From an uncultured Gammaproteobacteria bacterium (GTDB taxonomy: Bacteria > Patescibacteriota > Patescibacteriia > Magasanikbacterales > UBA922): a DNA stretch of 64,000 bases. The stretch spans positions 11,532 to 75,531 of the forward strand of contig CAYFPJ010000004.1 in the NCBI GenBank assembly GCA_964344965.1, written 5' to 3'. Within the stretch, counting starts at the first letter, position 1; the number at the start of each line of letters is the position of its first letter. The notes under the pieces were generated by a model, which was given only the letters and a program-made list of their open reading frames with translations, did no database searches and was not told the origin of the DNA. Positions 25,317-63,789 of the stretch are shown here, piece by piece. The translations under genes and the position numbers were made by a program.

Positions 25317-26747
25317 TCACCCAAAGATCTGATCCCCATCATCATAGGTAATATCACCAGAATCAGTCATGTATTTTGGGGCAGTTTTTTCAAATTCTGC
25401 CACCTTATCTTCTGGTGCAGACAATAGTTCAATAGGTAGACCAACAGGCGGCTCGGAAGTCTTGAGACTGGCTGTCTGAATCTGTGGAGTAGCAACATGA
25501 GACATTGGAAAATGCCAAATTGTAGCCAATTCTTCAATATTCAAGACATAGCGCTTCTTACCTATCCAAGGATTACGTTTTTTATAGGCTTTCATCATTA
25601 TATTTTTTCTAAAGTTATCCCTTCTTTCTTTCATGAAATATTCTGTCGATGTAATATATTTTGGCAAAAGAGCATTGGAGTAGGGATTGTTGAACTGATT
25701 CACTGCCCCCACCAAAGAATTTATTCCTCTAGATGGATTGTATACTTCTTTTTTGGCAACATAGACTGTCCTAATCTTGGTCTTAAATCCGAGCTTGCTG
25801 ATCTTATTTTCCATAGCTTCAAGCAACTTCTTCTTCCCAGGTGTTAAGTACAAAATTTGATTGGGAGGTCCATCATCCTTAGAAGAAGAAGTGGATCCAC
25901 CCTCTGTACGAATTCCTCCAGCCAACTGGGCACTGACCTCTTCAAAACTTCTGGCAAACTCATTTGTGAGAGGGTTATCAAAGACCCAACCAAGCATGCC
26001 TGGCTTACTCTTTTCTTTTTCACCAATAAGTTCTTTGATCTTCTTTATGCATCCCTTTTTCCAACGAAATTCCTGTAGAGGCTCGATAATAATTTGATAC
26101 CACATCTGCTCTCCTGGTCCAATCCTACTGAAACTCTCCAAAAAAGTACCCATAGGATCTTTCAAGACAGTATCTTTTGAGATGTTGTGTTCAAACTCTT
26201 GGTACATACGAATTGGATAGGCCTCATGCTGTGTCAAGACAAAATCAGCTGCCCACATCTTGTGAGTGTCACTTGGATACTTGTCTGGAATTCCTTCTGT
26301 ATAATCCTCTACCTCAGTAATTTCTGCTTCTGGATATTGAGCATAGACAGCTGCTTCGATCACATCCTGGTATTTATCAAGTGTGCGAATCAAAAACTGG
26401 ATATAACCCTCAATACTCACAATCTCAAAACTAAATTGGTTTTGATAAAATCCATGCCAATACTTCGTACCAATACTTGGTACCTCCATCACACTGAATA
26501 TGTGAGTAAATAGCTGCTCCACAGCTTTGGGGGTCTGTACATTCATCGGAGGAATATCTATAGCCAAAAGCACGTGTTTAAAATCTTTTTTTAAAATTTT
26601 CCTCTTGTAGGAATAGAGCTCATAAAAACCGGCGTACAACAAAAGATACACCAACACAGACCAACCTCCTGCTGCTATAAATCTATAAATTATTTCAAAA
26701 GTTGACTCGCTTGTTATGTAGTCAATGATGATATCCATAGCTGACAA
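25317..26747 (-). CDS. hypothetical N-terminally membrane-anchored protein
   Basis: 476-aa ORF with 2 N-terminal TM helices and a large soluble domain. Confidence 0.6.
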   Translation of the reverse strand: MSAMDIIIDYITSESTFEIIYRFIAAGGWSVLVYLLLYAGFYELYSYKRKILKKDFKHVLLAIDIPPMNVQTPKAVEQLFTHIFSVMEVPSIGTKYWHGFYQNQFSFEIVSIEGYIQFLIRTLDKYQDVIEAAVYAQYPEAEITEVEDYTEGIPDKYPSDTHKMWAADFVLTQHEAYPIRMYQEFEHNISKDTVLKDPMGTFLESFSRIGPGEQMWYQIIIEPLQEFRWKKGCIKKIKELIGEKEKSKPGMLGWVFDNPLTNEFARSFEEVSAQLAGGIRTEGGSTSSSKDDGPPNQILYLTPGKKKLLEAMENKISKLGFKTKIRTVYVAKKEVYNPSRGINSLVGAVNQFNNPYSNALLPKYITSTEYFMKERRDNFRKNIMMKAYKKRNPWIGKKRYVLNIEELATIWHFPMSHVATPQIQTASLKTSEPPVGLPIELLSAPEDKVAEFEKTAPKYMTDSGDITYDDGDQIFG

Positions 26748-36162: not shown

Positions 36163-37281
36163 TTAGTGTTTCCACCACTTCCTTATCTCCCTCCAACTTA
36201 TTTTTCGCCTACCTCTTATTTCATATCTCTTATTTCTCAAATCCTTCCTATTCTTCCACACCTCCTTAAGTCCCTTCAATACACTTCTGTCAAACAAAAG
36301 AAACCAGCCAAACTTCTTCAATTCATACCATTTTATCCACAAAAAATCAAGTAGCCAGTTTTGCCAATACTCGTTTTTGTAAATAGTCATTAATTGATTT
36401 TTGTAACTATGATATTTCACCCAGTTGGATTGCTTTTTTTTGTTTTTGGAGGCAAAGAAGTCTCCTGTGTTCTCCAATCCCTCAGCAGAGCGATCATGAT
36501 AAGCGACTGTATCTAGAAGTACACAAGCCTTATACCCAGCTTGTCTAAGACGAAAAGCCAAATCTACGTCTTCTTTATAAGAACCGTAGCTCTGGTCCAA
36601 AAAAGTTCCATCAGAAAACTGAACTGCCTCAGCAGCCTGACGACGAAGCATGGGGAAAGCTCCAGACACTCCGAACACTTCCATAGCGTCCCCCTGGGTG
36701 CGATAGCTAGTCATTACTTTTGGCTTAATCTTTTCCCACTCCTTACCAGTATATTTCTCTATCACCCGCCGATTCCGAAATACTTTCAAACCAAGTGAGT
36801 CAATTTTATTTGTAAATGAGCACTGAAGCAAGGAAAAATCCGCCCCCCCTTGTAGGGGGGGCTGGGGGGGGTTATCACCAAGCACACCAAAATCCCACCG
36901 CATTAGTCTAGGACTCACCGCAGCCACATCTTTTCGAATATCCATAAACTTCACCATCCTTTCAAAACAGTTTTTCAAAAGATACATATCCTGATTAAGA
37001 AGCAAAAAATATTCTGATTGCTGATCACCGCTCACTGATCTCTGGTATAGCAAATTATGACCTCCTGCAAAGCCAAGATTTTCTCTGTTTTCGATCAGCC
37101 TCACCTCAACTGGAAAATCTGCTATCTCAGCTTTGATACTAGCAGCAGTGTCATCACTAGATCCATTATCAAGTACCACGAGTCGCCAATTTGTAAACTC
37201 TTGTTTGCGTAGAGAGTCAAAAAGATATGGAACATATTTGGCTCCATTCCAAGTAACCAGTTGTACTACTAATTTAGACAT
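36163..37281 (-). CDS. family 2 glycosyltransferase (GT2) carrying an in-frame palindromic-element insertion
   Basis: GT2 motifs (VVLDNGSSDDT, DMYLL); element E6 at 36841-36876 encodes GDNPPQPPLQGGA in frame. Confidence 0.8.
   Translation of the reverse strand: MSKLVVQLVTWNGAKYVPYLFDSLRKQEFTNWRLVVLDNGSSDDTAASIKAEIADFPVEVRLIENRENLGFAGGHNLLYQRSVSGDQQSEYFLLLNQDMYLLKNCFERMVKFMDIRKDVAAVSPRLMRWDFGVLGDNPPQPPLQGGADFSLLQCSFTNKIDSLGLKVFRNRRVIEKYTGKEWEKIKPKVMTSYRTQGDAMEVFGVSGAFPMLRRQAAEAVQFSDGTFLDQSYGSYKEDVDLAFRLRQAGYKACVLLDTVAYHDRSAEGLENTGDFFASKNKKKQSNWVKYHSYKNQLMTIYKNEYWQNWLLDFLWIKWYELKKFGWFLLFDRSVLKGLKEVWKNRKDLRNKRYEIRGRRKISWREIRKWWKH
36841..36876. repeat. G/C-run palindromic element E6 (CCCCCCCTTGTAGGGGGGG + GGGGGGGGTTATC), intragenic and in frame
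   Basis: Perfect hairpin with 7-bp G/C arms inside a CDS. Confidence 0.75.
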
Positions 37282-44898: not shown

Positions 44899-47127
44899 CT
44901 ATTTTTTCAAGTCAATATTCCAAATCAGAAAGTCACCCAGCTGCTCAGGTGTGGAGCTGGAAAATTCTGACATTTTTGCTTCCTTTTCCTCATCTACATC
45001 TTTTATTGGCAACACAACCCAACACCTCTCATGTCCAGTGATATTAGATATCTCAGATAAGACACTTTGTTCTGGATTTTCTATCATTTCAGATAATAAT
45101 GAAACTCTCTTCTCTTGGGCAAATTGGTAATCAATAGGAAATCCGCCACCGACAATTTTTTGAGATGACCTCGACTCAAGAGCAAGAAGAATCCAAGTAT
45201 TTGCTAAAACACACTGACTATCTTCATTTTTATGCTTCCAAACATAATTGGCCGCATTATATTCATCTAGACTGACAACTCTCATATCAGGACCAGTCGC
45301 AAATGATGTCGTGCCCACCCAAGAAAATAATACTACCAATGACAAAATAACCACATTCCTATACCTTGCTCTCATTTTCTCAAAATTAATCTTACTCAAA
45401 CCAAAAACAAAATAAACAAATATGACTATAGAAAAAATTGGATCAAGACGGCGGACAAATGATCTGTCTCCCTCGAGGAAAAACCAACCTATCAAATATC
45501 CAGCCACAATACTCGTAGCAAAAAGATTAAAAATCAACCAAACTATTTTTTTCTTATATAATGATCTCCAGAGTCCAAATATTGCTAAGCCAAAAATAAT
45601 TGAAACACCAAGCATCATTGGCCAACGCCAGTCAGTGAAGAAGCTCGATACAAAAGCATAATCTGGAGTATGATTGATAAGAATATTGCCACTAAGCATA
45701 TCATGAGGGCGAATAGCACTAGCATAGTACCAGCCACTAAACTGGCCGAGCATCTGCTTAATCTGGTTCACAAAGTCCCAAGATTGAGGAAGGTGGCTAG
45801 CTCTACTGACTATTTCTATAATTGGAAAAAATAAGATGGCAAAAATTGTTGAGAATGAGATAGTTATTTTTCTAAAAATTTTATTGCCACGAAAATCTAT
45901 ATTCTTGAAAAATAAAGAAATTAAAATCACAAACCAAATCAAAATGAAATACAGTGTGTACCCAAACAGCATGGAGACTGCAAAAAATAATGCCAAATTC
46001 CTTCCCCTCTTACCCCCACTATCCAAATATTGCAACCACAGCATCAACGTGAATAAGAAGAATAATAATCCCAAACTAACAGGCAGAGCAAGGCTCCCAA
46101 GAGCTTGTAGGGTAAATGGGATTAGTGATAAGAATGAAAAAAACAAACCAGCCCGCCACGAACCAAACATGATTCGACCAATTCGTAATAAAACTATCGG
46201 CAAAACTATAGACCATAAGAAAACCATCATCCACTTGTTGACTGCCAACAAATCAATATCTAGGGTGGCAGATAAAAGCACGCCAGATCCCCAGAGATGA
46301 CCATAAAGATACTTGTGTGGCACGACCAAAGCTTCTGGCACATCTATGCCTGCTACTTCACGCCAGCTAGCTTCATCCCCAAACAAAACTGGCAAAACAG
46401 ACTGACCACCCAACAATTGATTCTCGACAGCCACATGTCTCCATACATCCCCGCCCCAAGGCATCTCATGAGACAATGGTAAATAAAGATGCATGACTAG
46501 AGACTGAACAATAATCAAAAATAACAAAGTCTTGATCTTGTGCTTTGAACAAACTAATATCCCTAGCACGAAAATAGACAAAAAAGTAAGAGGTAAAACA
46601 AGTTTATCAATACTTTGCCAAGGAGAATTCAAAACTTCTGTGCCATTTGATTTGAGAAGTAAGAAAAATATCAATGAAGCAAGTAGTAAAAAAATTCCCA
46701 ACAAAATATTATTTTTCTTAAACATTACAAAGCCAAATTTCTTTTTTCCATTTTCAGAAAGTCCTCTTTTTCTTTTTTTCTTAACAATCAAAAAAAGCAG
46801 ATAGCTAAATATTGCTAAAGTTAAATATACTGACCACAAAAGCATGGGAGTCAGCTTGTACCAGACGACCAAGACAGAGCTGAACAAACCTAGCAAAGTG
46901 AAAACTGTAAAAAATGAAAATACCACCGTCATCCAATCCTTATACTTCATCCCAAAAATACGATGCAAAACACAACGCCAATATTCTCCTACAAACCATA
47001 GATAGACGACAAATAGCAAAATTCCAGCAAATTTGCTATGCCAAACAGTCAGTTGGAGATATAACAAAAATAGCAGAACTGCCAACTTACCAACTTCTAT
47101 CAATTTTATCCTATACAAAAATTTCAC
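44899..47127 (-). CDS. large polytopic membrane protein (~16 TM plus C-terminal soluble domain), GT-C-like glycosyltransferase/polymerase candidate
   Basis: 742-aa ORF; paralogous to 47346-49556 (SPWQSIDK vs SPWQAVNH, GGDVWRHVA vs GFDAFIHRA). Confidence 0.6.
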   Translation of the reverse strand: MKFLYRIKLIEVGKLAVLLFLLYLQLTVWHSKFAGILLFVVYLWFVGEYWRCVLHRIFGMKYKDWMTVVFSFFTVFTLLGLFSSVLVVWYKLTPMLLWSVYLTLAIFSYLLFLIVKKKRKRGLSENGKKKFGFVMFKKNNILLGIFLLLASLIFFLLLKSNGTEVLNSPWQSIDKLVLPLTFLSIFVLGILVCSKHKIKTLLFLIIVQSLVMHLYLPLSHEMPWGGDVWRHVAVENQLLGGQSVLPVLFGDEASWREVAGIDVPEALVVPHKYLYGHLWGSGVLLSATLDIDLLAVNKWMMVFLWSIVLPIVLLRIGRIMFGSWRAGLFFSFLSLIPFTLQALGSLALPVSLGLLFFLFTLMLWLQYLDSGGKRGRNLALFFAVSMLFGYTLYFILIWFVILISLFFKNIDFRGNKIFRKITISFSTIFAILFFPIIEIVSRASHLPQSWDFVNQIKQMLGQFSGWYYASAIRPHDMLSGNILINHTPDYAFVSSFFTDWRWPMMLGVSIIFGLAIFGLWRSLYKKKIVWLIFNLFATSIVAGYLIGWFFLEGDRSFVRRLDPIFSIVIFVYFVFGLSKINFEKMRARYRNVVILSLVVLFSWVGTTSFATGPDMRVVSLDEYNAANYVWKHKNEDSQCVLANTWILLALESRSSQKIVGGGFPIDYQFAQEKRVSLLSEMIENPEQSVLSEISNITGHERCWVVLPIKDVDEEKEAKMSEFSSSTPEQLGDFLIWNIDLKK

Positions 47128-47345: not shown

Positions 47346-49556
47346 ATGAAGAACGTTTCCAAAAAACAATACCTGATAGCTGCAAGCGGCGCTACATTAC
47401 TTTTGTTATTGAACATTTTCTTTTTGAACAGTATCTTGATTGGCATCACAGCCATCATCCTCTATGGCTACGTTTTCAGCAGATTTATCGCTGATATTTT
47501 TTTGTCAGAAGAAAACCAAGGCAGACTATTTTATGGCTTTTTACTACTCCTGACTGGAGAGATACTAACCAACACTGCCCTCTACTATCTCCACGGCATC
47601 ACACCAGTCACCGTTGCCATCGCCCTACTTCTACCGTTCCTACTATTTCTATCATCAAAATCTCTCCCCCTTTATAAGGGGGAGATGGCCGCAGGCCAGA
47701 GGGGGTTGCGTGGCAGAGCCCCATTTCTTGGCATAGCCAACATCCTCCTAAACATCGCTCTCCTCACAACTCTCTTCCTAAACCAAACAACATCCCTAAT
47801 GCCCTCCCCCTGGCAAGCGGTAAACCACTGGTTTTTCATCACCTTCGCTATTTCCACTGCATTTCTAATCCTGTTCGTCTCTAAAAATAAAAATTATCAG
47901 ACTAGCATCTTCGCAATGGCAGTGCACCTGTTTGTGATGTTTGGTGTGGCAGCCATCCTCTATCCACTGGGCTATGGCTTCGATGCCTTCATCCACCGCG
48001 CAACTGAAGAATGGATCTTACTGAATGGTAGTATCTTGCCAAAAACTCCTTACTATATTGGCCAGTACAGTCTAGTTGCTTGGCTGGCTCATATTACTTC
48101 CCTGCCAATTTTCTATCTTGATGTCTATCTTGTCCCGATCTTAGCGTCTATTTCCTTGCCAATCGTAGTTTCCAATGTGCTAAAAAAAATCTGGAACATA
48201 CCGTACAAAGTTGGAATCCTTCTCACACTTTTCATTCCTTTCATCCCCTTTCTTTCTCTTCATCTCACCACTCCTCACAACCTGGTAATCTTATTTACAA
48301 TTCTTATTGTCTTCACCACTCTTGGCTATTTGAAAAATAAAACACCCCTAATTATTCCCTTCTCCCTCTCCCTCGCTTCTCTCGCCACCCACCCCCTAGT
48401 CGCTGCTCCTACTTTTGTTTTTCTTATTGCAACAATGATCATTAAAAAAACATCCGCCAGAGGACGGACCAGCCTCTGGCTGGAAAAACTATCTCCTATC
48501 TCCTATCTCCTATCTTTTTTACTAATCACCCTCACAGTCCCAATTCTCTTCATCCTCAACAATTTCCTCGCCAATGCTCCCCTACCAACATTCACCAATC
48601 CTCTGTCAAGTCTACCTTACTTCCTAGAACTCTTTGCCCGCCCCTACTGGTATCTTGAAAATGCTCCGATAATTTATGAACTCCTCTACACTTGGCAACT
48701 TTTGATAATTCCAATTGCGATTTCCCTCTGCTTCGCTGGATTTTTCATATCCAAAAAAAAGCTCAAAGCTGAGTATCTATTTCCAATAGCAACAATATCA
48801 TTCTTCCTCAGTGCCTGGCTCCTACGCAGTTGGATCGTCTTCCCCGACGTCGTCTCCTACGAACAAGGCGACTATCCCCTCCGCCTCCTCAAAACCAGCC
48901 TCATCTTCATCCTCCCCTTCGGAACGTTCATGATTTATAAAATACTTGCAAACTTGCAAACTTACAAACTTACAAACTTAAGCAAAACCAGAAAAACAGC
49001 AATGACTATCACGTTAGTGACAATCATCTCAGCATCGCTCATGCTCTCCTTCTACTTCTCCTATCCTCAAAGAAACATCAAATCCCGCTTCCCCGGCTTC
49101 AATATCACCGCTGCTGATTTCCAGGCTGTCGAATGGATTCATGAAAGAGAGAAAAAAACTTTCCGAAGCATAGGAAGGATTGATGGACCCTCTTTATTTT
49201 TATCGACACAAGTCGCAGAAATCGATTACATTGTACTATCAAATCAACTTGTCTCTGCTAGCGCGCTCACAAAATACAGCTTTGCCAAATATTTCCAAAC
49301 TGAGTCAGGAGAAATATTTTACTATTCAATCCCTACTGGTGGAAAACTATACCAACAATACGGCAAGATGCTCTATGAAGGACAAAAGCGAGAGTATATG
49401 GAAGATGCCATGCAGATTGCTGGAGTGGACAAAGCTTACTTTGTCGTAAACTCTTACTGGGCCAATGCTGATAAAATTATTGAAGGAGCGAAAGAAAGTG
49501 CTGATGGTTGGGAAGTGATTAATAATCAAGTCTGGATTTTTATTTATGAAAAATAA
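47346..49556 (+). CDS. large polytopic membrane protein, paralog of 44899-47127, with an in-frame palindromic-element insertion
   Basis: 736-aa ORF; element E5 at 47659-47716 encodes LPLYKGEMAAGQRGLRGRAPF in frame. Confidence 0.6.
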   Translation: MKNVSKKQYLIAASGATLLLLLNIFFLNSILIGITAIILYGYVFSRFIADIFLSEENQGRLFYGFLLLLTGEILTNTALYYLHGITPVTVAIALLLPFLLFLSSKSLPLYKGEMAAGQRGLRGRAPFLGIANILLNIALLTTLFLNQTTSLMPSPWQAVNHWFFITFAISTAFLILFVSKNKNYQTSIFAMAVHLFVMFGVAAILYPLGYGFDAFIHRATEEWILLNGSILPKTPYYIGQYSLVAWLAHITSLPIFYLDVYLVPILASISLPIVVSNVLKKIWNIPYKVGILLTLFIPFIPFLSLHLTTPHNLVILFTILIVFTTLGYLKNKTPLIIPFSLSLASLATHPLVAAPTFVFLIATMIIKKTSARGRTSLWLEKLSPISYLLSFLLITLTVPILFILNNFLANAPLPTFTNPLSSLPYFLELFARPYWYLENAPIIYELLYTWQLLIIPIAISLCFAGFFISKKKLKAEYLFPIATISFFLSAWLLRSWIVFPDVVSYEQGDYPLRLLKTSLIFILPFGTFMIYKILANLQTYKLTNLSKTRKTAMTITLVTIISASLMLSFYFSYPQRNIKSRFPGFNITAADFQAVEWIHEREKKTFRSIGRIDGPSLFLSTQVAEIDYIVLSNQLVSASALTKYSFAKYFQTESGEIFYYSIPTGGKLYQQYGKMLYEGQKREYMEDAMQIAGVDKAYFVVNSYWANADKIIEGAKESADGWEVINNQVWIFIYEK
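47659..47716. repeat. G/C-run palindromic element E5 (CTCCCCCTTTATAAGGGGGAG + GGGGGTTGCG...), intragenic and in frame
   Basis: Perfect hairpin inside a CDS. Confidence 0.75.
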
Positions 49557-55709: not shown

Positions 55710-56063
55710 TTAAACCAAACCAACAAGCGGCTTAATCTCCCTCACATCATCTTCCACTCGCCTCAACCGCTCCCCCATAAACGTCACCTCCTGATCTCTC
55801 TTTTCTACCAGGCCAACAATCTTATCAAGCGTATTCGAAATACCCCGCAAGTCATCTTTTGTAGCCATATTTTCTTCGATTCTATCAAGTCTATCAGAGT
55901 GATCAACGACAGCCAGCACGATATTGTCAAGTTTCCCATCATGTTCTGTTACTTTGCGAGAAATAAAATCAAGCTGCTTGTCGTGCTCTGTGACTTTATG
56001 AGCAATAAAATCAATCTGCTCTTCATGCGCTTCTGGTCTTTGTTCTTGTGTATTATTTTTCAT
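55710..56063 (-). CDS. hypothetical coiled-coil protein with an internal repeat (IDFIAHKVTEHDKQLD / FISRKVTEHDGKLD)
   Basis: 117-aa ORF. Confidence 0.5.
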   Translation of the reverse strand: MKNNTQEQRPEAHEEQIDFIAHKVTEHDKQLDFISRKVTEHDGKLDNIVLAVVDHSDRLDRIEENMATKDDLRGISNTLDKIVGLVEKRDQEVTFMGERLRRVEDDVREIKPLVGLV

Positions 56064-56641: not shown

Positions 56642-57109
56642 CTAGTCCTCCACAAGGGACATTTTGTCCCCTATTTTGAGGTCATGTGCTACTGCCCAGC
56701 CAGATTGAAGCTCTAAGACCATAGTAGAGTCAATTCTAGGTGTATATACCCGCAATTGCTCCTCTGGGACATCTTCTGGCTCCACACTAGGTGCAATGTC
56801 CACCACCTCACCCTTATCTAGCCAGATAATATCAATTGGAAAATTCATGTCCCTCATCACTATGCCATGTTGCCCTGGAAATTCAAACAAAAACAACATT
56901 CCTTGATTTTGTTCCAACTTATTCCTTCCTCCCAAACCTTTGTATCTCTGTTGGATAGTTTTGGGTAGCCAAACATTCAGAATCTCACCGTTTAGGAAGA
57001 CTTTTTTCACTGGGATCCTGTATTGCCAAAATTGTAGTGCCACAAAAGCAATGAAAAAAATTGTTAGAAAAAAGATTCCGATTTTGCTTACTTTAATTTG
57101 GTTAGGCAT
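56642..57109 (-). CDS. DUF192 domain protein
   Basis: N-terminal TM helix; GMLFLFEF...IDIIWLD pattern. Confidence 0.65.
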   Translation of the reverse strand: MPNQIKVSKIGIFFLTIFFIAFVALQFWQYRIPVKKVFLNGEILNVWLPKTIQQRYKGLGGRNKLEQNQGMLFLFEFPGQHGIVMRDMNFPIDIIWLDKGEVVDIAPSVEPEDVPEEQLRVYTPRIDSTMVLELQSGWAVAHDLKIGDKMSLVED

Positions 57110-57188: not shown

Positions 57189-58241
57189 TTATAAGCCTTT
57201 CTTCTTACTAAACCAAACTCCCAAAAGTAACATCAAAATAAACAGTAGCACCAAAGCAATCATCTTCTCACTACTCTGCAAAAATAACGTCGTTACCCCA
57301 AACAAAAATGAAATAGCATACATGAGAAGCACTGCTTGCTTTTGGGTCAGGCCAGATTCAATCAGTTTGAAATGCAAGTGCTCACTGTCCCCAACATGGA
57401 TTGGTTTTTTCTTTTGGATCCTTCTTATTATAACACGAATTACGTCTAGTGCGGGGATACCCATTACTAGAAGTGTGGTAGCAATCTTACCGCCAGAAAT
57501 AATAGCTAAGGCCCCGATCATAAAGCCAGTAAATAGACTACCACCTTCGCCCAAGAATATCTTGGCTGGATGCCAATTCCAGGCCAAAAATCCAAGACAG
57601 CTACCAGCAAAAATAATTGACAAGAGTGCTACTTCTGGTTGATACCATGGCTCCTGGAGACTAAGAGCGAAGATCATCATCGCCCCAATAGTGACCACAC
57701 CAGTAACCAATCCGTCTAACCCATCAAGAAACTTGGTGGTAAACATCATTCCCATCAACCAAAAGAAAACTACCAAATCTGCCAAAATTACCCAATTACC
57801 CAAACCAGCAAGCGACAGAGTCCACTGGTCTAGAGAAACTACCCCGCCCCAAGGATTAGTAATTTCATGAGGCCCAATGCCAAAAGCAATAATGATAGTA
57901 GCAGCCAAAATTGGAAAAATAATTTGTTTTTTTGCCCTCAGATTGTACTTATCATCCAGTAGACCTCCAATCATCAAGACCAGACCTCCCCAAAACAAAC
58001 CCCAAATATGGCGTGGTAATACATCATTTCCAAAATGACTGGAAAGCAAAAGAAAAGTAATCAAAAAAAAGCTAAAAAAAATTGCCATTCCTCCTCCGAG
58101 TGGAATTTTCTTCTTGTGAATCTTACGTTTCTCTGTCCGAGGAGCGTCTACAATGTGATACTTCTGCATCAAGATCCGAACCAGAGCAGTGGCAAAAAGA
58201 GAGGCAAAAAAAGTAATAATAAAATAACCAAAATATTGCAT
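57189..58241 (-). CDS. MraY/WecA-family polyprenyl-phosphate N-acetylhexosamine-1-phosphate transferase (likely MraY)
   Basis: 10-11 TM helices; DD..D motif (LLDDKYNL); DGLDGL motif; H-rich loop PIHVGDSEHLHF. Confidence 0.6.
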   Translation of the reverse strand: MQYFGYFIITFFASLFATALVRILMQKYHIVDAPRTEKRKIHKKKIPLGGGMAIFFSFFLITFLLLSSHFGNDVLPRHIWGLFWGGLVLMIGGLLDDKYNLRAKKQIIFPILAATIIIAFGIGPHEITNPWGGVVSLDQWTLSLAGLGNWVILADLVVFFWLMGMMFTTKFLDGLDGLVTGVVTIGAMMIFALSLQEPWYQPEVALLSIIFAGSCLGFLAWNWHPAKIFLGEGGSLFTGFMIGALAIISGGKIATTLLVMGIPALDVIRVIIRRIQKKKPIHVGDSEHLHFKLIESGLTQKQAVLLMYAISFLFGVTTLFLQSSEKMIALVLLFILMLLLGVWFSKKKGL

Positions 58242-58443
58242 AATTTGTATATGACAATGTCAACTAATATTGTACCTCAATCTATATTCTTTTACAAAAC
58301 AAAAAAAGACCCCAACCTCGCTCACTCCTTGCCAATATTTCCAATAAACCTGTCCTGCGAAGCTTCAGCGAAGCAGGATGAAAATATCAGCAAGTCGCGC
58401 GAGGCCAAGGTCCTCTCCAAATGCGTGACTCTAGCCCTTTCCT

Positions 58444-58707
58444 CTAGGAGCGCCGAAGCTCCGTACGGAGCCAAGCGACGAAGCAGACCACAAAGACAAG
58501 CGCCAGTGGCACAAACAGGGCCAAAGAAAAAGGCTCTGAAGCTGCCGCCCACAGTCCCACAAAAGGACTGAAACAGACGGCCGCCACAGCACCAAATCCC
58601 GGGCTCTTCTCAACACGCCAGCAAAACAGCGCGCCGAGGGCCAGGTAGGTGCTAACGATCCACCCCACAATAACCATTTCCGCCTCCGCGGCGATATGAG
58701 GGTTCAT
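58444..58707 (-). CDS. hypothetical small membrane protein encoded in a GC-rich island
   Basis: ~87 aa from an internal ATG preceded by GAGGG; 2-3 TM helices; overlapping alternative-frame ORFs look like GC-driven artefacts. Confidence 0.4.
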   Translation of the reverse strand: MNPHIAAEAEMVIVGWIVSTYLALGALFCWRVEKSPGFGAVAAVCFSPFVGLWAAASEPFSLALFVPLALVFVVCFVAWLRTELRRS

Positions 58708-58802
58708 TCCCTCTCTTCTTACTTTTTTTGTCAAAAATTAAGAAGAGAAAGAATGTAAAACATGTAAAAAATAAACCACAGAAATAGTGGTTTGTCAATT
58801 AT

Positions 58803-58912
58803 TATATTATCCCTCCCCTTTTAGGGGAGGTTAGGAGGGGTTACGGACTACCAAAATCTTTCTTGCTAAGTAACCCCCTCTAGCTCCCCCTAAAAGGGGG
58901 AGAAATTTTAAC
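58803..58912. repeat. G/C-run palindromic element E4 (three hairpins)
   Basis: CCTCCCCTTTTAGGGGAGG; GGAGGGGTTAC...GTAACCCCCTC; CTCCCCCTAAAAGGGGGAG; overlaps the stop of the Clp ATPase gene. Confidence 0.8.
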
Positions 58913-61646
58913 CCCTCTCCACCCTAATTTCACAACCTGCTCCCAATACCACCACATCTCTCCGTTGCAATTTATTTGAAAGCAGCAAGTCAGCAAGTTG
59001 ATTTTCTACTTTATTCTGTATTGCTCTACGCATCGGACGAGCCCCAAATTCTGGATCAAACCCTACTTCAGCGAGAGATTCGAGAGCAGCCTCTTCCACG
59101 CGCATTCCGATCCCCTTGATCGCCAGATCCTTCTCTACCCGCTTCAGCATCAAGCCAGCAATCTTCTTGATTTCTTCCCTGTTCAATGCTTTGAAAAGTA
59201 CGATGCCATCAAAACGATTGAGGAATTCTGGTTTGTAATATTTTTTCAATTCTCCACGAACAATATCTTGACGAATACTCTCTAGATCGACTCCTTCTCT
59301 GATCTTGTCCTGGACATAGGCAGTACCAGCATTACTGGTTGCAATGATTATCGTATTGGTGAAATCGATCACCCGACCGACACTGTCAGTCAGTCGCCCA
59401 TCATCAAACACTTGCAAAAACAGATTGAGAATATCAGGATCAGCCTTTTCCATCTCATCTAGAAGTACCAAGGAAAAAGGATTTTGTCGCACTGCTTCTG
59501 TCAGAAGTCCTGTCCCTTGCTGACCAGGTTGGCCAATTAGGCGATAGACTCCACTCTTGTCCTGATACTCACTCATATCGACTCTGATCATCCTCTCTTC
59601 TCCACCAAAGTAGACATTGGCAATAGTCTTGGCAAGCTCAGTCTTACCCACACCAGTCGGTCCGAGGAATAGGAAATTGGCAATCGGCCTATTCTCTGAT
59701 CTCATCTGGGCTCTAGCTCTACGAAGAGCACTAGCCACGAGGACCACGGCTTCATCTTGACCAATGACCCGCTTGTGCATTTCATCCTCCAGGCGCAATA
59801 ATTTGCTAGACTCATCTTCTGAGATGCTAGTCACCGGTATGCCAGTCTTACTGCCGACAATAGCTGCCACATCATCTCCTGTCACAATCTGATTTTTACC
59901 TCTTTTTCTTCTAGTGTAAGCGGCTGCTTCTGTCATCAATTCTATTGCACTTTCTGGCAAATTCTTGTCATGAAGAAACTTCGTAGCCAGCTGGACAGAT
60001 TGTGCCAGAGCATCATAAGAAAAAAATACTCTATGCTTGTATTCTGACAAACCAACTTTTGACTCTAGTACTTGGATAGCTTGGTTTTGATTCATTTCAT
60101 TGATATCTACTCTCACCAAGGCCTGAGAAATCTCTGAGTCCAAAATATATTTATTGAACCCATCGAGAGTGGTGGTAGCAAAAGAAAAGAAACGATCTGT
60201 GCCAATGAACTCAGCTAAGGTCTCTGAGACATCAAGCCCTTCTCCTCCGTCACCTTTGGCTCCTGCTCCGACCAGGTCATGAATATTATTTATAAATAAA
60301 ATAATATTTTTGGCTCTAGCCACCTCGTGCATGATCTGAATCAACCTCTGCTGAGCGCCACTGACTGTAGTACCGGCCAAAAGAGAGGAAGTAGAGATTT
60401 GAACCAACCTCTTGTCTTTTAGCAAATTTGGAACATTTTCTTCTACCATCCTCTGAGCAATACCTTCGATGATACTCATCTTACCTACTCCACGATTACC
60501 AACCAAAAGGGCACTCTGAGCACCGCCTTCAATGATACGGAAAAGTTGGTCTATCTCCTTCTCTCTTGCTACACAAGGAAAAAGTTGACCAAACTTGGCA
60601 GACAGAGTCAAATCTTGACTAAATCGATTTAAAAAAGGAGTAGCTATGGCAGTCATAGCACGATCCATACCATGCTTACTTCTACGAGCCGCAGCTTTTT
60701 TGAACTTTTGATGCTGCCGACGAAGATTTTCTCCAATTCTAAGCCACTCAATGACATTGACAAGTTTTTGTTGATCCACCTTCAGGTCATACAATAATTC
60801 CTGGAGAGCTTGAGATTGCATCACTGTAGCATGAAGTAGCTCTGTCACGTGGACATAATCTTGCTTGGCGCGGTAAGCATATTCATACGCATGAAATAAA
60901 ATTTGCTCTGCATCATCACTTCTTTCTAAACTATTACCTAAAAATCTTTTGGCGACAAGGGCTCGGAGCTGCTTAGCTGGAATACTAAGTCTAGCAAAAA
61001 CCCCCTCAATTCCTGGCACAGAAAGCAAAGTATAAAAAACGTGAAAAGAGTTTATATTGACTTTTTTACCAGACCCTGGAGCACTGTATGATTTTTCAAT
61101 TACTTGCAGAGCTTCTTCTGTGAATACTTTAGAGATGTCTTTTTTGTTTTTTCTAGAAAATTTCTTCACTTGAGACCAGTCCGAAAGAATCTCCACATTA
61201 CTATTTTCAGCAGTATTATACGAATAATTTTCTACTGCCTCAATTTTTTTGTGTCCAGCTATTATTCGATAGATAAAAAAAGAAAAAGAGGCAATAGCCA
61301 ACCAAAAAAAAGCTTGGGTCATGCCAGGACCCTCTTGCCAAAAGCTTGCAGAAAAAATATCCAACCACAACTTCTGGCTATCAACTCGCCAAAAAAATAA
61401 CCCAAGAAAACCAACAAAAAAAATAATAGAACCGAAAATTTCAAACTTTTGCAAAAAATGAGTAGCTTTTCTCAAAAGAATATGATACCTGGTCAGAGGG
61501 CGTCCCCAATATAACAACTTTTCGCGCACTGCATAAGCCACACCATGTTTACGACAAACATAGCAAGGACGCGGACCACTGTAACCTTTGGCATCACACT
61601 GACTACAGACAAGCAAGGGAATTTTTTCTTGAGCATCAAATTGCAT
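58908..61646 (-). CDS. Clp/Hsp100 AAA+ ATPase (ClpC/ClpA-like) with an unusual N-terminal zinc-ribbon and two predicted TM helices
   Basis: 912-aa ORF; Clp_N repeats; AAA2 Walker A GPTGVGKT; AAA1 P-loop reads GNRGVGKMS; N-terminus CSQCDAKGY...CYVCRKHG followed by two hydrophobic helices. Confidence 0.8.
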   Translation of the reverse strand: MQFDAQEKIPLLVCSQCDAKGYSGPRPCYVCRKHGVAYAVREKLLYWGRPLTRYHILLRKATHFLQKFEIFGSIIFFVGFLGLFFWRVDSQKLWLDIFSASFWQEGPGMTQAFFWLAIASFSFFIYRIIAGHKKIEAVENYSYNTAENSNVEILSDWSQVKKFSRKNKKDISKVFTEEALQVIEKSYSAPGSGKKVNINSFHVFYTLLSVPGIEGVFARLSIPAKQLRALVAKRFLGNSLERSDDAEQILFHAYEYAYRAKQDYVHVTELLHATVMQSQALQELLYDLKVDQQKLVNVIEWLRIGENLRRQHQKFKKAAARRSKHGMDRAMTAIATPFLNRFSQDLTLSAKFGQLFPCVAREKEIDQLFRIIEGGAQSALLVGNRGVGKMSIIEGIAQRMVEENVPNLLKDKRLVQISTSSLLAGTTVSGAQQRLIQIMHEVARAKNIILFINNIHDLVGAGAKGDGGEGLDVSETLAEFIGTDRFFSFATTTLDGFNKYILDSEISQALVRVDINEMNQNQAIQVLESKVGLSEYKHRVFFSYDALAQSVQLATKFLHDKNLPESAIELMTEAAAYTRRKRGKNQIVTGDDVAAIVGSKTGIPVTSISEDESSKLLRLEDEMHKRVIGQDEAVVLVASALRRARAQMRSENRPIANFLFLGPTGVGKTELAKTIANVYFGGEERMIRVDMSEYQDKSGVYRLIGQPGQQGTGLLTEAVRQNPFSLVLLDEMEKADPDILNLFLQVFDDGRLTDSVGRVIDFTNTIIIATSNAGTAYVQDKIREGVDLESIRQDIVRGELKKYYKPEFLNRFDGIVLFKALNREEIKKIAGLMLKRVEKDLAIKGIGMRVEEAALESLAEVGFDPEFGARPMRRAIQNKVENQLADLLLSNKLQRRDVVVLGAGCEIRVERG

Positions 61647-61716: not shown

Positions 61717-62076
61717 TTAACTTATTATGACTGACAGAGAAAGCATATAAACTACAAAAATAGGAAAAACCAGCCACAAAAAGAAGACAGACAAGAGCAA
61801 TAAAAACCAAAAAAGTAAAGCTATTGATCTGAATATAATATTAAAAAATCTAATAAACACACTCATCAGGCGACCCTGGATATCTCTCTGCCCAAACATA
61901 GGGACAAAAATATTTTTCAACCACAGCATCGGAGCAAGACGACTATTGCCACCTTGAAAAACATTCCACAGACCAGCCCCCACCCACAACAAACCACCAG
62001 AATACCACCATACTGGAAAATAAAAAAAATCCAACACCAACTTAATAATGAGCCTCTGGAAAACAATAAAAAACAT
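61717..62076 (-). CDS. hypothetical small membrane protein
   Basis: 119-aa ORF with 3-4 TM helices. Confidence 0.45.
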   Translation of the reverse strand: MFFIVFQRLIIKLVLDFFYFPVWWYSGGLLWVGAGLWNVFQGGNSRLAPMLWLKNIFVPMFGQRDIQGRLMSVFIRFFNIIFRSIALLFWFLLLLSVFFLWLVFPIFVVYMLSLSVIIS

Positions 62077-62270: not shown

Positions 62271-62615
62271 CTATCTAAGAGCAACAGCCGTGCCAACTGG
62301 TGTGAGATATTCTGGACTATCGACAGTCACTAGATTCAATTCTGTAATTCTATTCTGAATTGACTCCATAGAACGATACTCAGCTATCTCGACATTGATC
62401 TTTCTATTTTCTCTTTCGAGTTCTACGATCTGTCTTTCCAAATCACTAATCTCAAAACCTTTGGTAGATACAGAATTCGTCTGGAAAACATAGAGAACTC
62501 CAAACAAAATCATCATCACAATCAATCCAACCCGAAAAGAACTGCTGACTATCAACTTCTGGAGAGCTTGTTTTTTTTGTCTTAATGTTGGTTTTTGTTT
62601 TAAATAAGCATTCAT
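62271..62615 (-). CDS. ftsL: cell division protein FtsL/DivIC-like (septum formation initiator)
   Basis: Single TM helix plus coiled coil; immediately downstream of rsmH, as in dcw clusters. Confidence 0.6.
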   Translation of the reverse strand: MNAYLKQKPTLRQKKQALQKLIVSSSFRVGLIVMMILFGVLYVFQTNSVSTKGFEISDLERQIVELERENRKINVEIAEYRSMESIQNRITELNLVTVDSPEYLTPVGTAVALR

Positions 62616-62719: not shown

Positions 62720-63694
62720 CTACAATTTTTCTACCACTCGTAACTTTGCAGATCTGGACCTAGGATTATGTTCACGCTCCCTGTCACTACAGACAATAGG
62801 TTTTTTTGTGACAATATTGATACTTTTTCCTTTCTGTGATTTGAAATAGTGCTTCACAATCCTATCTTCCAGAGAATGAAATGATATCACAGCCAGCCTA
62901 CCCCCACTTGCCAACAAATCTATTGCCTGGGGCAATGTACGCTCTATCACACCGATTTCATCATTTACAATGATTCTAAGAGCTTGAAAAGTTTTGGTAG
63001 CCGGGTGAGTCCCACCTACCCAAGGAATTTTATTTTCATCTTTTATTTTTAATTTTTTTCTATAAACCTCGAGGACAATATCCACCAAATCACCGACAGT
63101 CTCTAAAACAAACTTCTCTCTTTTTTCTACTACTAGTCTAGCCATCTCCTTACTTAGTTTTTCTTCACCACATTCTCGAAATATTTTTTCTAGCTCTTCT
63201 TCACTTTTTTTGTTCAAATGTTCTGCCGCGGTACACTTACCATATAGCGGCTTACCATCATATGACAAAGGTGGATTATCTGCGAGGTGGATACACTTCA
63301 GACGCATGTCATAGCGCATGTCTAGAGGTTCTTCTTTGTTTTGGAATGAGAATCCTCTTCCGCGCTCTTGAAACTGTGGACTAGACCAACCCAAGTCAAT
63401 GAGTATTGAATTAACTGGCGCAAAATCATGTGTTTTTATTATCTCTGATAAATTTTCAAAATTATCTCTTTCAAAAATTACTCTGTCAGAAAACTGATGT
63501 AAAAATTTTTTGGATCTTAGGAGTGACTCAGGGTCAGCATCTATACCGAGCAGTCTCCCGTCTGGACTAGTTGCTTCTAATATTTTTTCAGAATGACCGG
63601 CATCACCAATGGTGCAATCGACGACATTAATCCCTGGCTTCAGTTTTAGAAATTCAAGTACCTCTTCCAAAAGTACCGGCACATGACGTAACAT
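62720..63694 (-). CDS. rsmH: 16S rRNA (cytosine1402-N4)-methyltransferase RsmH (MraW)
   Basis: HVPVLLEEVL...DCTIGDAGHS...DLGWSSPQ motifs; start taken at the internal ATG 63694. Confidence 0.85.
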   Translation of the reverse strand: MLRHVPVLLEEVLEFLKLKPGINVVDCTIGDAGHSEKILEATSPDGRLLGIDADPESLLRSKKFLHQFSDRVIFERDNFENLSEIIKTHDFAPVNSILIDLGWSSPQFQERGRGFSFQNKEEPLDMRYDMRLKCIHLADNPPLSYDGKPLYGKCTAAEHLNKKSEEELEKIFRECGEEKLSKEMARLVVEKREKFVLETVGDLVDIVLEVYRKKLKIKDENKIPWVGGTHPATKTFQALRIIVNDEIGVIERTLPQAIDLLASGGRLAVISFHSLEDRIVKHYFKSQKGKSINIVTKKPIVCSDREREHNPRSRSAKLRVVEKL

Positions 63695-63789
63695 ATATTT
63701 TAAATTCTGTGTAATCCTTAAAATCCACGTAATCTGTGTAGGCATAAATGACCTCAGACGTCGGCGCCATACATAAATACCAACGCCTG

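Follow-up and report, generated by a model that had tools for sequence, protein, structure and literature searches.

Hsp100/Clp ATPases are soluble unfoldases with tyrosine pore loops and couple to either ClpP or Hsp70. An ORF in the window (the whole stretch of DNA analyzed here, 64,000 nucleotides) had been predicted to encode a membrane-anchored Clp/Hsp100 ATPase, which raises the question of what kind of Hsp100 protein would be tethered to a membrane and whether it could still act as an unfoldase. The ORF is intact, with an ATG start and exactly the boundaries given in the original prediction, and all sequence strings quoted there were found and mapped to coordinates (Table 1). We refer to its product as ClpTM.

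Table 1. Coordinates of ClpTM, its domains, and the neighboring genes.
Feature	Residues or length	Position	Strand	Basis and remarks
DUF192 membrane-anchored protein		56642..57109	(-)	Pfam DUF192, E 5.7e-26
GT4 polyprenyl-phosphate sugar-phosphate transferase, WecA/MraY-like		57189..58241	(-)	Pfam Glycos_transf_4
Clp/Hsp100-like CDS (ClpTM)	912 aa	58908..61646	(-)	Pfam, PDB, and Foldseek matches
C4 zinc ribbon CSQCDAKGYSGPRPCYVC, CxxC-x10-CxxC	14-31	61554..61607	(-)	Cys 14, 17, 28, 31; cytoplasmic by predicted topology
β-hairpin with LYWG.PLT motif	35-52	61491..61544	(-)	conserved; model strands 35-40, 43-47
TM helix 1 (predicted) FEIFGSIIFFVGFLGLFFWRV	68-88	61383..61445	(-)	Kyte-Doolittle hydropathy up to 2.05; model helix 53-90
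Extracytoplasmic loop (predicted)	89-111 (∼23 residues)	61314..61382	(-)	low K+R
TM helix 2 (predicted) AFFWLAIASFSFFIYRIIAG	112-131	61254..61313	(-)	Kyte-Doolittle 1.83; model helix 109-130
Clp_N-like N-domain	175-321	60684..61124	(-)	NCBIfam ClpB positions 1-157, weak match, E 9.6e-6
N-D1 linker SK.G.DRAMTA.ATP.LN.FS.DLT	322-347	60606..60683	(-)	family-specific
D1 AAA+ module, degenerate		59895..60605	(-)	Walker A GNRGVGKMS, pore loop TTVSGA, Walker B FINNIH
D2 AAA+ module, catalytic motifs intact		59187..59894	(-)	Walker A, Walker B, sensor 1, Arg finger, sensor 2
D2 pore loop GQPGQQGTG, shortened, non-aromatic		59508..59543	(-)	E. coli ClpB/ClpA alignment
ClpB_D2-small C-terminal domain		58950..59186	(-)	Pfam PF10431, E 4.2e-24
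Small helical membrane protein, conserved partner	119 aa	61717..62076	(-)	motifs YFPvWWY..G, LWLKNIFVPMfGQ.D.qGR
FtsL/DivIC-like protein		62271..62615	(-)	Pfam FtsL_2, DivIC weak; NCBIfam FtsL_Actino E 3e-8
RsmH/MraW methyltransferase		62720..63745	(-)	Pfam Methyltransf_5, E 5.6e-93

Class and predicted N-terminal membrane module of ClpTM

From the N to the C terminus, ClpTM comprises a C4 zinc ribbon, a hairpin of two predicted transmembrane (TM) helices, a putative Clp_N-like domain, and two AAA+ modules (D1 and D2). The Pfam domains AAA, AAA_lid_9, AAA_2, and ClpB_D2-small score above the gathering threshold, and their succession (AAA with AAA_lid_9, followed by AAA_2 with ClpB_D2-small) is that of class-I Hsp100 proteins. 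Among PDB sequences, ClpC, ClpB, and ClpA are matched at E values of 1e-98 to 1e-132, ClpC being the best (9e-132); ClpE (29hb) and Plasmodium HSP101 (6e10, 6e11) are also among the matches. ClpC and ClpB are the top Foldseek matches of the ClpTM model (E 1e-55). ClpTM would be a membrane-integrated class-I Hsp100/Clp-type ATPase, as part of an explanation for which we see, as a whole, about an even chance. A scan of the ten largest remaining ORFs in the window revealed no Clp domain.

The top NCBIfam score of ClpTM is ClpB (E 1.9e-165), but the ClpB equivalog TIGR03346 is matched with 552.6 bits against a cutoff of 1232.1. The ClpA equivalogs (TIGR02639, 488 versus 993 bits; PRK11034, 366 versus 1350) and the ClpV equivalog (TIGR03345, 437.6 versus 884.95) also stay below their cutoffs, and the NCBIfam listing for ClpTM contains no ClpC-specific model. 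T6SS genes, the context of ClpV/TssH, are absent among the neighbors, which are dcw and envelope genes. Pfam finds no Peptidase_M41 in ClpTM, which thus differs from the combination of a single AAA module and M41 in FtsH.

The original prediction had noted a cysteine motif and two hydrophobic helices in the N-terminal extension, had taken the latter as a membrane anchor, and had named TM prediction and a look for orthologs with the same extension as checks. Hydropathy, charge bias, the structure model, and the orthologs all bear it out. Kyte-Doolittle hydropathy in 19-residue windows reaches at least 1.6 at residues 67–89 and 112–131 only (maximum elsewhere, 1.17), and AlphaFold2 places helices at the same two sites, with mean pLDDT values per 10-residue block of 87–94 across residues 51–90 and of 92 across residues 111–130. 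The K+R count is 5.3 ahead of TM1 and 3.7 behind TM2, compared with 1.4 in the intervening loop, a bias that fits an N-in/loop-out/C-in topology. At least one TM-like segment is present in 119 of 120 ClpTM homologs, Trp-115 and Tyr-126 of TM2 are nearly invariant, and Trp-103 of the external loop is conserved to at least 90%. The zinc ribbon forms short β-strands in the AlphaFold2 model. None of its four cysteines varies across a diverse alignment (A2), in which Tyr-46 of the adjoining β-hairpin is conserved to at least 90%.

That the extension might merely reflect a mis-called start, the case named as refuting in the original prediction, or that the gene might be a decaying pseudogene, could be read from two observations: for ∼20 of the 120 database homologs, the gene call is shorter by ∼35 residues (these ∼880-residue calls begin at an internal Met), and the catalytic motifs of D1 are lost. 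Yet the extension is kept down to 23–30% identity in ∼250 clusters (50% identity clusters), Met-1 and Phe-3 are conserved to at least 90%, and 72 of 80 species-representative loci encode the zinc ribbon in their DNA, whatever start the gene call assigns. The reading frame is uninterrupted, and D1 remains conserved, down to its degenerate motifs (see below). We therefore rejected a mis-called start, and the probability of either artifact or decay appears negligible.

The N-domain is assigned tentatively as Clp_N-like, from the NCBIfam match, from other members of the family, and from the structure model, since Pfam Clp_N gave no match in ClpTM, even when the isolated N terminus was searched. 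The domain exceeds the Pfam gathering score in two family members (P0134 and P0246), the region of ClpTM aligns with the N-domains of ClpB and ClpA, and its AlphaFold2 model has the expected eight-helix layout. The linker that follows is the most conserved segment of ClpTM (column identity 0.87 among close and 0.68 among distant members) and contains invariant residues; pLDDT is low at residues 324–334.

The two ATPase modules

The non-canonical first P-loop pointed out in the original prediction is real and conserved in the family, but it is only one symptom of a broadly degenerate D1. Compared with E. coli ClpB and ClpA, the Walker A threonine is replaced by methionine (GNRGVGKMS, residues 383–391, nt 60474–60500), the DE of Walker B by NN, the arginine fingers R331/R332 are lost, and the pore loop reads TVSG where KYRG is expected, so that the pore tyrosine is gone. 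These states are conserved in the 120 homologs (Met-390 in 110); the motifs vary in 76 distant members, none of which has the pore tyrosine. With the Mg-binding threonine of Walker A, the acidic pair of Walker B, and the trans-acting arginines all replaced or lost, D1 is predicted to be unable to hydrolyze ATP. It is still under constraint, as seen from its column identities (0.74 close and 0.52 distant, versus 0.85 and 0.68 for D2). Because D1 keeps the P-loop lysine and its overall conservation, it is most likely a structural, possibly nucleotide-binding, assembly tier.

For D2, described as canonical in the original prediction, the description holds for the catalytic motifs and fails for the pore loop. 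Walker A (GPTGVGKT, residues 662–669), Walker B, sensor 1, the arginine finger, and sensor 2 show conservation at or close to 100% in the 120 homologs and the 76 distant members. A 4-residue deletion (GQP----GQQGTG) takes out the GYVG tyrosine equivalent to Tyr-653 of ClpB, which is missing in all 120 close homologs. Across the family, the length and sequence of this loop vary, often with 4–6 residues deleted, so that the function of the pore seems to be only weakly constrained; a few basal members keep APPGY or APPGF. ClpTM consequently lacks both pore-1 tyrosines of Hsp100 proteins (KYR in D1 and GYVG in D2), and the term “unfoldase” in the original prediction, which assumes a threading pore, is unproven. 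Tyr-701 was considered as a relocated gripping residue that would make up for the deleted GYVG, and dismissed as unsupported: position 701 is aromatic in 15 of the 65 members whose loop has no aromatic and in 1 of the 11 whose loop has one, whereas both sites are non-aromatic in 50 of 76 members.

The original prediction had also proposed to look for a ClpP-binding loop and an M-domain. The ClpP-docking loop (IGF/IGL/VGF, pattern [LIVM]G[FLM]) is absent from D2 of ClpTM and from 194 of 196 family members, whereas the control, the IGL of E. coli ClpA, was detected. An M-domain is absent in all members, the D1–D2 junction spanning 31 residues in ClpTM and 29–34 in the family, compared with 151 in E. 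coli ClpB. Without the docking tripeptide, ClpTM would be unable to feed ClpP, and without the M-domain, a DnaK drive of the ClpB kind would not be expected.

Family members are publicly named “ATP-dependent Clp protease ATP-binding subunit ClpC/ClpA,” which implies an unfoldase that delivers substrates to ClpP. Consistent with these names, ClpC is the best PDB match in sequence and fold, and ClpTM shares with ClpC/ClpA a putative Clp_N-like N-domain, two AAA+ modules, the D2-small domain, and a ClpA-like junction without a long M-domain; even the short M-domain of ClpC is missing, however. ClpTM also departs from ClpC/ClpA by its zinc ribbon and TM hairpin, the dead D1, and the missing IGF/IGL loop and pore tyrosines, on the last of which the action of ClpA depends critically (PMC8666677). 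The ClpA equivalog scores are far below their cutoffs, no ClpC-specific model is listed, and, with D1 toward the membrane as the N-terminal anchor suggests, D2 would remain available to ClpP, yet the docking motif is missing. Delivery to ClpP is therefore very remote. The public labels fail the features that define ClpC and ClpA, because D1 is degenerate, the D2 pore tyrosine is deleted, and the M-domain and IGF/IGL loop are absent; hundreds of public records are probably mis-annotated.

A membrane-tethered disaggregase of the ClpB type, which would resolve aggregates at the membrane together with DnaK, would agree with the top NCBIfam score, the ClpB_D2-small domain, the lack of a ClpP loop as in ClpB/Hsp104, and the nearly identical D2 catalytic motifs. 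ClpB, however, has two hydrolytically competent rings, whereas ClpTM has an intact D2 beside a D1 with GKM, NN, and no RR. In addition, the DnaK-docking, regulatory coiled coil is missing in all members (so that Hsp70 coupling is lost as well), both pore tyrosines are gone, the protein is predicted to be membrane-integrated, and 553 bits are far under the ClpB cutoff. We consider such a disaggregase improbable.

A C4 zinc-binding module at the N terminus, ahead of the ATPase, is also found in ClpE and ClpX, where it serves adaptor or substrate recognition. In ClpTM, the TM hairpin parts the zinc ribbon from the ATPase, whereas ClpE and ClpX are soluble proteins with docking sites for ClpP. ClpTM thus has the zinc ribbon of ClpE, but not its ClpP loop, and it is set apart by the hairpin.

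The ClpTM family, its partner gene, and the operon context

The linker pattern MTA[VIL]ATPxL[DN] identified relatives in 322 species-representative genomes. These genomes and ∼250 clusters at 50% identity share the N-terminal extension and, where named, all belong to the Patescibacteria, a vast bacterial radiation with few cultivated members and largely obscure cell biology. ClpTM has the features that define the family, namely the TM hairpin, the MTA.ATP.L[DN] linker, an intact D2, the absence of an M-domain and IGF loop, and a small upstream partner gene. Full-text searches found no literature on membrane-anchored Hsp100 proteins or on this family in Patescibacteria. The family is large and previously uncharacterized; it departs at once from the rules of solubility, tyrosine pore loops, and coupling to ClpP or Hsp70, and yet is strongly conserved and widespread in Patescibacteria. 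It offers a natural experiment on an AAA+ ring without aromatic pore loops.

The gene for the 119-amino acid partner lies directly upstream of ClpTM, on the same strand, in all 80 related loci. All 5 distant loci have it directly upstream as well (hmmsearch E 1e-24 to 2e-41), and the pairing survives even a break in dcw synteny. Among those orthologous and distant loci that were inspected, the start and stop of the two genes are 3–20 nt apart or overlap. The partner matches no known family in Pfam or NCBIfam, and its AlphaFold2 model (pLDDT 95) has no fold match in the PDB (Foldseek, best E 4.5). Because the partner belongs to no characterized family, the gene linkage says nothing direct on the substrate. 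Neither the partner nor the dcw-operon context had been seen in the original prediction.

The usual gene order is mraZ-rsmH-ftsL-[partner-Clp]-GT4-DUF192. Upstream of ClpTM, the FtsL/DivIC-like gene is found in 74 and rsmH in 72 of the 80 loci, with mraZ further upstream; downstream, the GT4 gene is found in 63 and the DUF192 gene in 64. NCBIfam scores the GT4 protein as WecA (95.8 bits) and MraY (62.7 bits), both under the cutoffs. Some distant members (L087, L090) have lost the dcw association. One family member (P0157) has GT4 fused in frame to the Clp-like protein; as this occurs on one contig only and may be a frameshift artifact, the fusion is weak evidence as a Rosetta-stone link. No ncRNA or tRNA was found in the 56–64 kb region, including a 666-bp gap. 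The fixed partner pairing and the usual location next to mraZ-rsmH-ftsL provide a testable entry into envelope building and division in ultra-small bacteria.

Possible function of the ClpTM complex

Our best explanation, for which we see about an even chance, is a D2-powered membrane complex, independent of ClpP and DnaK, that acts on envelope or division proteins by remodeling or extracting them. Like its homologs ClpB and ClpC, ClpTM is expected to form a hexamer. Each subunit would place a zinc ribbon in the cytoplasm, cross the membrane with the TM hairpin and its ∼23-residue external loop, and return into the cytoplasm through a ∼45-residue flexible linker. The Clp_N-D1-D2 stack would hang below the membrane with the N-domain/D1 face toward the bilayer, D1 serving as the assembly tier and D2 as the sole motor. 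ClpTM and the 119-residue membrane protein would act as an obligate pair in presumed contact, using ATP hydrolysis by D2 to remodel or extract membrane-embedded proteins, presumably of the envelope or division machinery, at the cytoplasmic membrane face. Recognition or docking would fall to the zinc ribbon, the Clp_N-like domain, and the invariant linker ahead of D1.

FtsH, which acts on membrane proteins, provides the closest functional analogy, since its two N-terminal TM helices tether a cytoplasmic AAA+ ring below the membrane, as is predicted for ClpTM. Unlike ClpTM, FtsH has one AAA module of the classical clade, an aromatic pore loop, a fused M41 protease, and a sizeable periplasmic domain between the TM helices, whereas ClpTM combines two Hsp100-type modules with a predicted external loop of 23 residues and lacks a protease. 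Plasmodium HSP101 in PTEX is a ClpB-type, ClpP-independent Hsp100 that works at a membrane with membrane-protein partners. ClpTM resembles it as an Hsp100 without ClpP docking whose gene is paired with that of a membrane protein; HSP101, however, lacks TM helices of its own, retains the pore tyrosines and the M-domain, and feeds a pore from its D2 face.

The lack of aromatics in the predicted pore loops of both rings weighs on the best explanation, in that it counts against any pulling or threading. Together with the variable D2 loop, it would make short-range or low-grip remodeling more probable than processive unfolding. The same features could be taken to mean that the ring does not pull polypeptides at all and is an ATP-controlled switch or scaffold, in which the nucleotide state of D2 alters the conformation or oligomeric state of the complex with the partner and thereby gates the GT4 transferase or an FtsL-containing divisome. 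Torsins set a precedent for such logic, being Clp/Hsp100-related and membrane-associated, lacking aromatic pore loops, and needing the transmembrane partners LAP1/LULL1 (PMC5425593); ClpTM shares the Hsp100 relationship, the non-aromatic pore loops, and a membrane-protein partner. The obligate gene pairing and the single GT4 fusion also favor a switch. Torsins, however, are eukaryotic proteins of the ER lumen with a single AAA module and no arginine finger of their own. D2 of ClpTM itself supplies the arginine finger and sensor 2, so that its active site needs no cofactor, and the ClpTM partner is small and helical and has no AAA fold. A full two-tier ring with a retained Clp_N-like domain would moreover be expensive for a mere switch, and the APPGY or APPGF loops of basal members suggest that the ancestor probably threaded. 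A switch is thus possible, if somewhat unlikely.

A bolder form of the non-threading reading, which we regard as doubtful, is a two-gene membrane machine, so far confined to Patescibacteria, whose Hsp100 double ring, with its dead D1 and non-aromatic pore loops, would have abandoned threading and would couple D2 hydrolysis through the TM hairpins and the obligate partner to envelope or division biogenesis. If true, Hsp100 proteins would gain a further functional class, and the poorly understood CPR division apparatus a component specific to this lineage. Candidate steps, included in the same doubtful estimate, are control of the adjacent WecA/MraY-like transferase or assembly of the FtsL-containing divisome.

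N-terminal region and family of ClpTM

All sequence strings on which the original prediction was based were found in the 912-residue ORF of ClpTM and mapped back to nucleotides. The N terminus carries the expected zinc ribbon (Cys14, Cys17, Cys28, and Cys31; CxxC-x10-CxxC), and both hydrophobic stretches are present at residues 68–88 and 112–131. Only there does the Kyte–Doolittle hydropathy (19-residue means) reach 1.6 or more; elsewhere, the maximum is 1.17. In the AlphaFold2 model of ClpTM (89 homologs as input, mean pLDDT 80.7), the zinc ribbon forms short β-strands; a β-hairpin comes next, and then helices 53–90 and 109–130. Mean pLDDT values over 10-residue blocks are 87–94 across residues 51–90 and 92 across residues 111–130. 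The counts of lysine plus arginine (5.3 ahead of TM1, 1.4 within the 23-residue loop, and 3.7 behind TM2) fit a topology in which the N terminus and the ATPase lie in the cytoplasm and the short loop lies outside.

Orthologs with the same extension exist, and the N-terminal segment is conserved across a large family. A word-indexed search with ClpTM returned at least 120 proteins of 57–79% identity, about three-quarters of which span 99–100% of ClpTM; the named matches are Magasanikbacteria, Parcubacteria, or Patescibacteria. An exhaustive phmmer search of 1.84 billion representatives (at 50% identity) with residues 1–345 alone yielded 248 proteins at E up to 1e-3, 157 of them at E up to 1e-10. 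These are mostly 880–940 amino acids long and align, at 23–44% identity, mostly from query residues 1–14 on, which led us to reject a mis-called start. That the extension is an annotation artefact or the gene a decaying pseudogene is extremely improbable, as this explanation fails on features that were tested. Database entries of ∼880 amino acids represent gene calls beginning at an internal methionine, and public names of family members are generic (“ClpC,” “ClpA,” “AAA family ATPase,” or “hypothetical”).

None of the four zinc-ribbon cysteines is substituted in a diverse set of 20 aligned sequences. Read at the DNA level, the ribbon is found in 72 of 80 species loci (a regular-expression count with four missed loci added by eye), while the other eight keep the N-terminal segment and have lost the cysteines. 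The linker between the N-terminal region and D1, the first AAA+ module (residues 322–347), shows the highest conservation of all segments (column identity 0.87 in close and 0.68 in distant members), despite which it is predicted to be flexible. Its family-specific pattern, MTA[VIL]ATPxL[DN], retrieved relatives in 322 species-representative genomes.

The two ATPase modules

By homology, ClpTM is a member of the class-I Hsp100 superfamily. It contains the Pfam domains AAA, AAA_lid_9, AAA_2, and ClpB_D2-small, and among solved structures, ClpC, ClpB, and ClpA match it best in both sequence and fold. ClpTM stays far below the cut-off of every NCBIfam Clp equivalog (ClpB, 553 versus 1232; ClpA, 488 versus 993; ClpV, 438 versus 885).

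We aligned Escherichia coli ClpB and ClpA with ClpTM and its relatives. The unusual first P-loop, GNRGVGKMS (residues 383–391), is indeed present, but the degeneration of D1 extends further than originally noted. Thr213 of Walker A is replaced by Met390, Asp278–Glu279 of Walker B by Asn453–Asn454, and the arginine fingers R331/R332 by Gln and Ala; the pore loop reads TVSG in place of KYRG and is devoid of tyrosine. Among 120 close homologs, Met390 is kept in 110, and glutamate is absent from the residues listed at position 454 (N100, G12, S3, and A3). D1 Walker A and B vary among 76 distant full-length members, none of which has the D1 pore tyrosine. To judge from these motifs, D1 of ClpTM cannot hydrolyze ATP. 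Its sequence is still under constraint, given column identities of 0.74 (close members) and 0.52 (distant members), compared with 0.85 and 0.68 for D2.

The second module, D2, had been read as canonical, which holds for its catalytic motifs: Walker A (GPTGVGKT, residues 662–669), Walker B, sensor 1, the arginine finger (R811), and sensor 2 (GARPMRR). Walker A, Walker B, and sensor 1 are at or near 100% conservation in the 120 close homologs, and Walker A and B are essentially invariant in the 76 distant members; by its motifs, D2 is catalytically complete. The reading does not hold for the pore loop, where GAPPGYVGYEEGG is changed to GQP----GQQGTG and the tyrosine is absent because of the four-residue deletion. 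In the 120 close homologs, this loop is conserved at Q706 (112), P707 (111), G708 (112), Q709 (88), Q710 (96), G711 (120), T712 (87), and G713 (120). Five of the 76 distant members have a near-canonical loop (APPGY or APPGF), and most show deletions of 4–6 residues. Pore-1 tyrosines are critical to ClpA function (PMC8666677), and aromatic pore loops are described as a conserved feature of Clp/Hsp100 proteins that is critical to their processive unfolding activity (PMC5425593).

Of the further features to be checked, neither the M-domain nor the ClpP-binding loop was found. The D1–D2 junction comprises 31 residues in ClpTM, versus 151 in ClpB and 33 in ClpA, and 29–34 residues in all 196 members. 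The ClpP-docking tripeptide IGL of ClpA has no equivalent in the ClpTM alignment, and 194 of the 196 members have no [LIVM]G[FLM] motif where the ClpP loop would be. At the sequence level, ClpTM thus has a membrane-anchored, two-tier Hsp100 architecture without ClpP-docking motif, M-domain, or aromatic pore residues. A ClpB-like protein is improbable, since ClpTM lacks the M-domain and an active D1 and stays below the ClpB cut-off; a ClpC/ClpA type working with ClpP, whose loop and cut-offs likewise failed, is more improbable still. ClpTM also differs from ClpV in gene context as well as score, from ClpE in lacking the ClpP loop (ClpE being soluble), and from FtsH, which it resembles in geometry, in lacking a protease domain. 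Full-text literature searches turned up no account of an Hsp100 integrated into a membrane, nor any of the ClpTM family.

The partner–ClpTM gene pair and its possible function

ClpTM lies downstream of rsmH, an ftsL-like gene, and the ORF of a hydrophobic protein, the partner, with mraZ located further upstream.

Features of the window
Feature	Position	Strand	Description
rsmH	62720–63745		upstream of ClpTM
ftsL-like	62271–62615		between rsmH and partner
Partner	61717–62076	minus	119 aa, hydrophobic; between ftsL-like and ClpTM
ClpTM	58908–61646	minus	912 aa, ATG start
Gap ClpTM–GT4	58242–58907		666 bp
CCCCC-N-GGGGG variants	36845–36859, 47666–47682, 58886–58900		palindromes
CCTCCCC-N5-7-GGGGAGG	634–654, 58812–58830		palindrome
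Terminator-like hairpin	58773–58793		
Gap ORF	58444–58734	minus	96 aa, GC-rich, hydrophobic
GT4	57189–58241		WecA/MraY-like transferase; downstream of ClpTM
DUF192 gene	56642–57109		after GT4, followed by L21
Repeat ORF	55710–56063	minus	117 aa, downstream of L21
Large ORFs	47346–49556, 44899–47127, 25317–26747, 21009–24017		736, 742, 476, and 1002 aa
Methylase ORF	4067–6103		678 aa, N-6 DNA methylase domain

In all 80 species-representative loci, the partner ORF directly precedes ClpTM on the same strand. FtsL-like (74), RsmH (72), DUF192 (64), GT4 (63), and L21 (60) follow in frequency, many absences being truncated contigs. In five distant members (26–30% identity in the N-terminal part), a partner homolog (hmmsearch E 1e-24 to 2e-41) is directly upstream in every case, with the two genes 3–20 nt apart or overlapping. 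Since the partner stays adjacent where the dcw (division-operon) context is gone (TGT–partner–Clp in locus L087, DsbA...partner–Clp in L090), the partner–ClpTM pair is the conserved unit; the dcw/GT4 context is frequent, not universal. In one member, P0157 (1231 aa, L095:4001–7696), a Glycos_transf_4 domain (residues 968–1124), the same domain as in the usual downstream neighbor GT4, continues in frame at the ClpTM C terminus. Whether a genuine Rosetta-stone fusion or the product of a frameshift or assembly error, it comes from a single contig and counts as weak evidence.

The partner is an obligately linked small membrane protein with no family in Pfam or NCBIfam. Its model, of very high confidence (pLDDT 95), is all-helical (helices 2–25, 27–47, 49–54, and 66–118), and a fold search of the PDB gave no match (best E 4.5). 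The C-terminal ∼35 residues are strongly hydrophobic, and the motifs YFPvWWY..G and LWLKNIFVPMfGQ.D.qGR..S...R are invariant. The partner ORF is uncalled on public contig L092 (2438–3063), which encodes an identical Clp-like protein, and called on L094; the family is probably under-annotated in public records.

Based on sequence, models, and gene linkage, the reading we favor, at about even odds, is that ClpTM uses ATP to remodel membrane-embedded envelope or division proteins or to extract them. The hexamer would be suspended below the membrane with its N-domain/D1 face toward the bilayer, D1 acting as a structural, possibly nucleotide-binding tier and D2 as the only motor. Recognition or docking may involve the zinc ribbon, Clp_N, and the invariant linker as surfaces, and the partner would be a component of the membrane complex; its invariant R69/R76/R83 helix or its LWLKNIFVPMFGQ loop is a candidate contact site for the transmembrane hairpin or the 322–347 linker. 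The main rival, a possible though doubtful one, is a non-threading nucleotide switch that gates neighboring machinery. It would resemble Torsin, with which ClpTM shares the absence of aromatic pore loops and the dependence on a membrane partner; the polar and variable pore loops agree with such a switch, whereas the full ring and the self-sufficient D2 active site that ClpTM retains speak against it. Rather unlikely in our estimate is a Patescibacteria-specific two-gene envelope/division machine built on an Hsp100 ring that has lost polypeptide threading.

Further observations in the window and related loci

The gap between ClpTM and GT4 spans ∼60–130 bp in orthologous loci. Two G/C-rich palindromes directly follow the ClpTM stop codon, and then a terminator-like hairpin; such palindromes may be REP-like elements or terminators. 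The gap ORF has a GC content of 56%, and its GC3 of 61% exceeds the 37% of the Clp gene, pointing to a foreign insertion. No Pfam family matches this ORF, the gap region has no Rfam or tRNA match, and in L093 a counterpart is annotated as a gene of 87 aa.

Many species representatives carrying a Patescibacteria-type ClpTM locus are titled “uncultured Gammaproteobacteria bacterium” (L009, L017, L018, L023, L024, L034, L037, L041, L043, and others), including the complete 1.23-Mb chromosome OZ246405.1. Because synteny and sequence are Magasanikbacteria-like, these titles look like placeholders or wrong taxonomy.

Pfam (E up to 1e-5) assigned no family to any of the four large ORFs, as is typical of Patescibacteria dark matter. 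The repeat ORF contains an internal repeat (…HDKQLDFISRKVTEHDGKLDNIV…) and matches DUF16 only weakly; at its position, the metagenomic contigs L092 and L093, which encode an identical Clp-like protein, also have a called gene of 117 aa. The methylase ORF is possibly part of a restriction-modification system.
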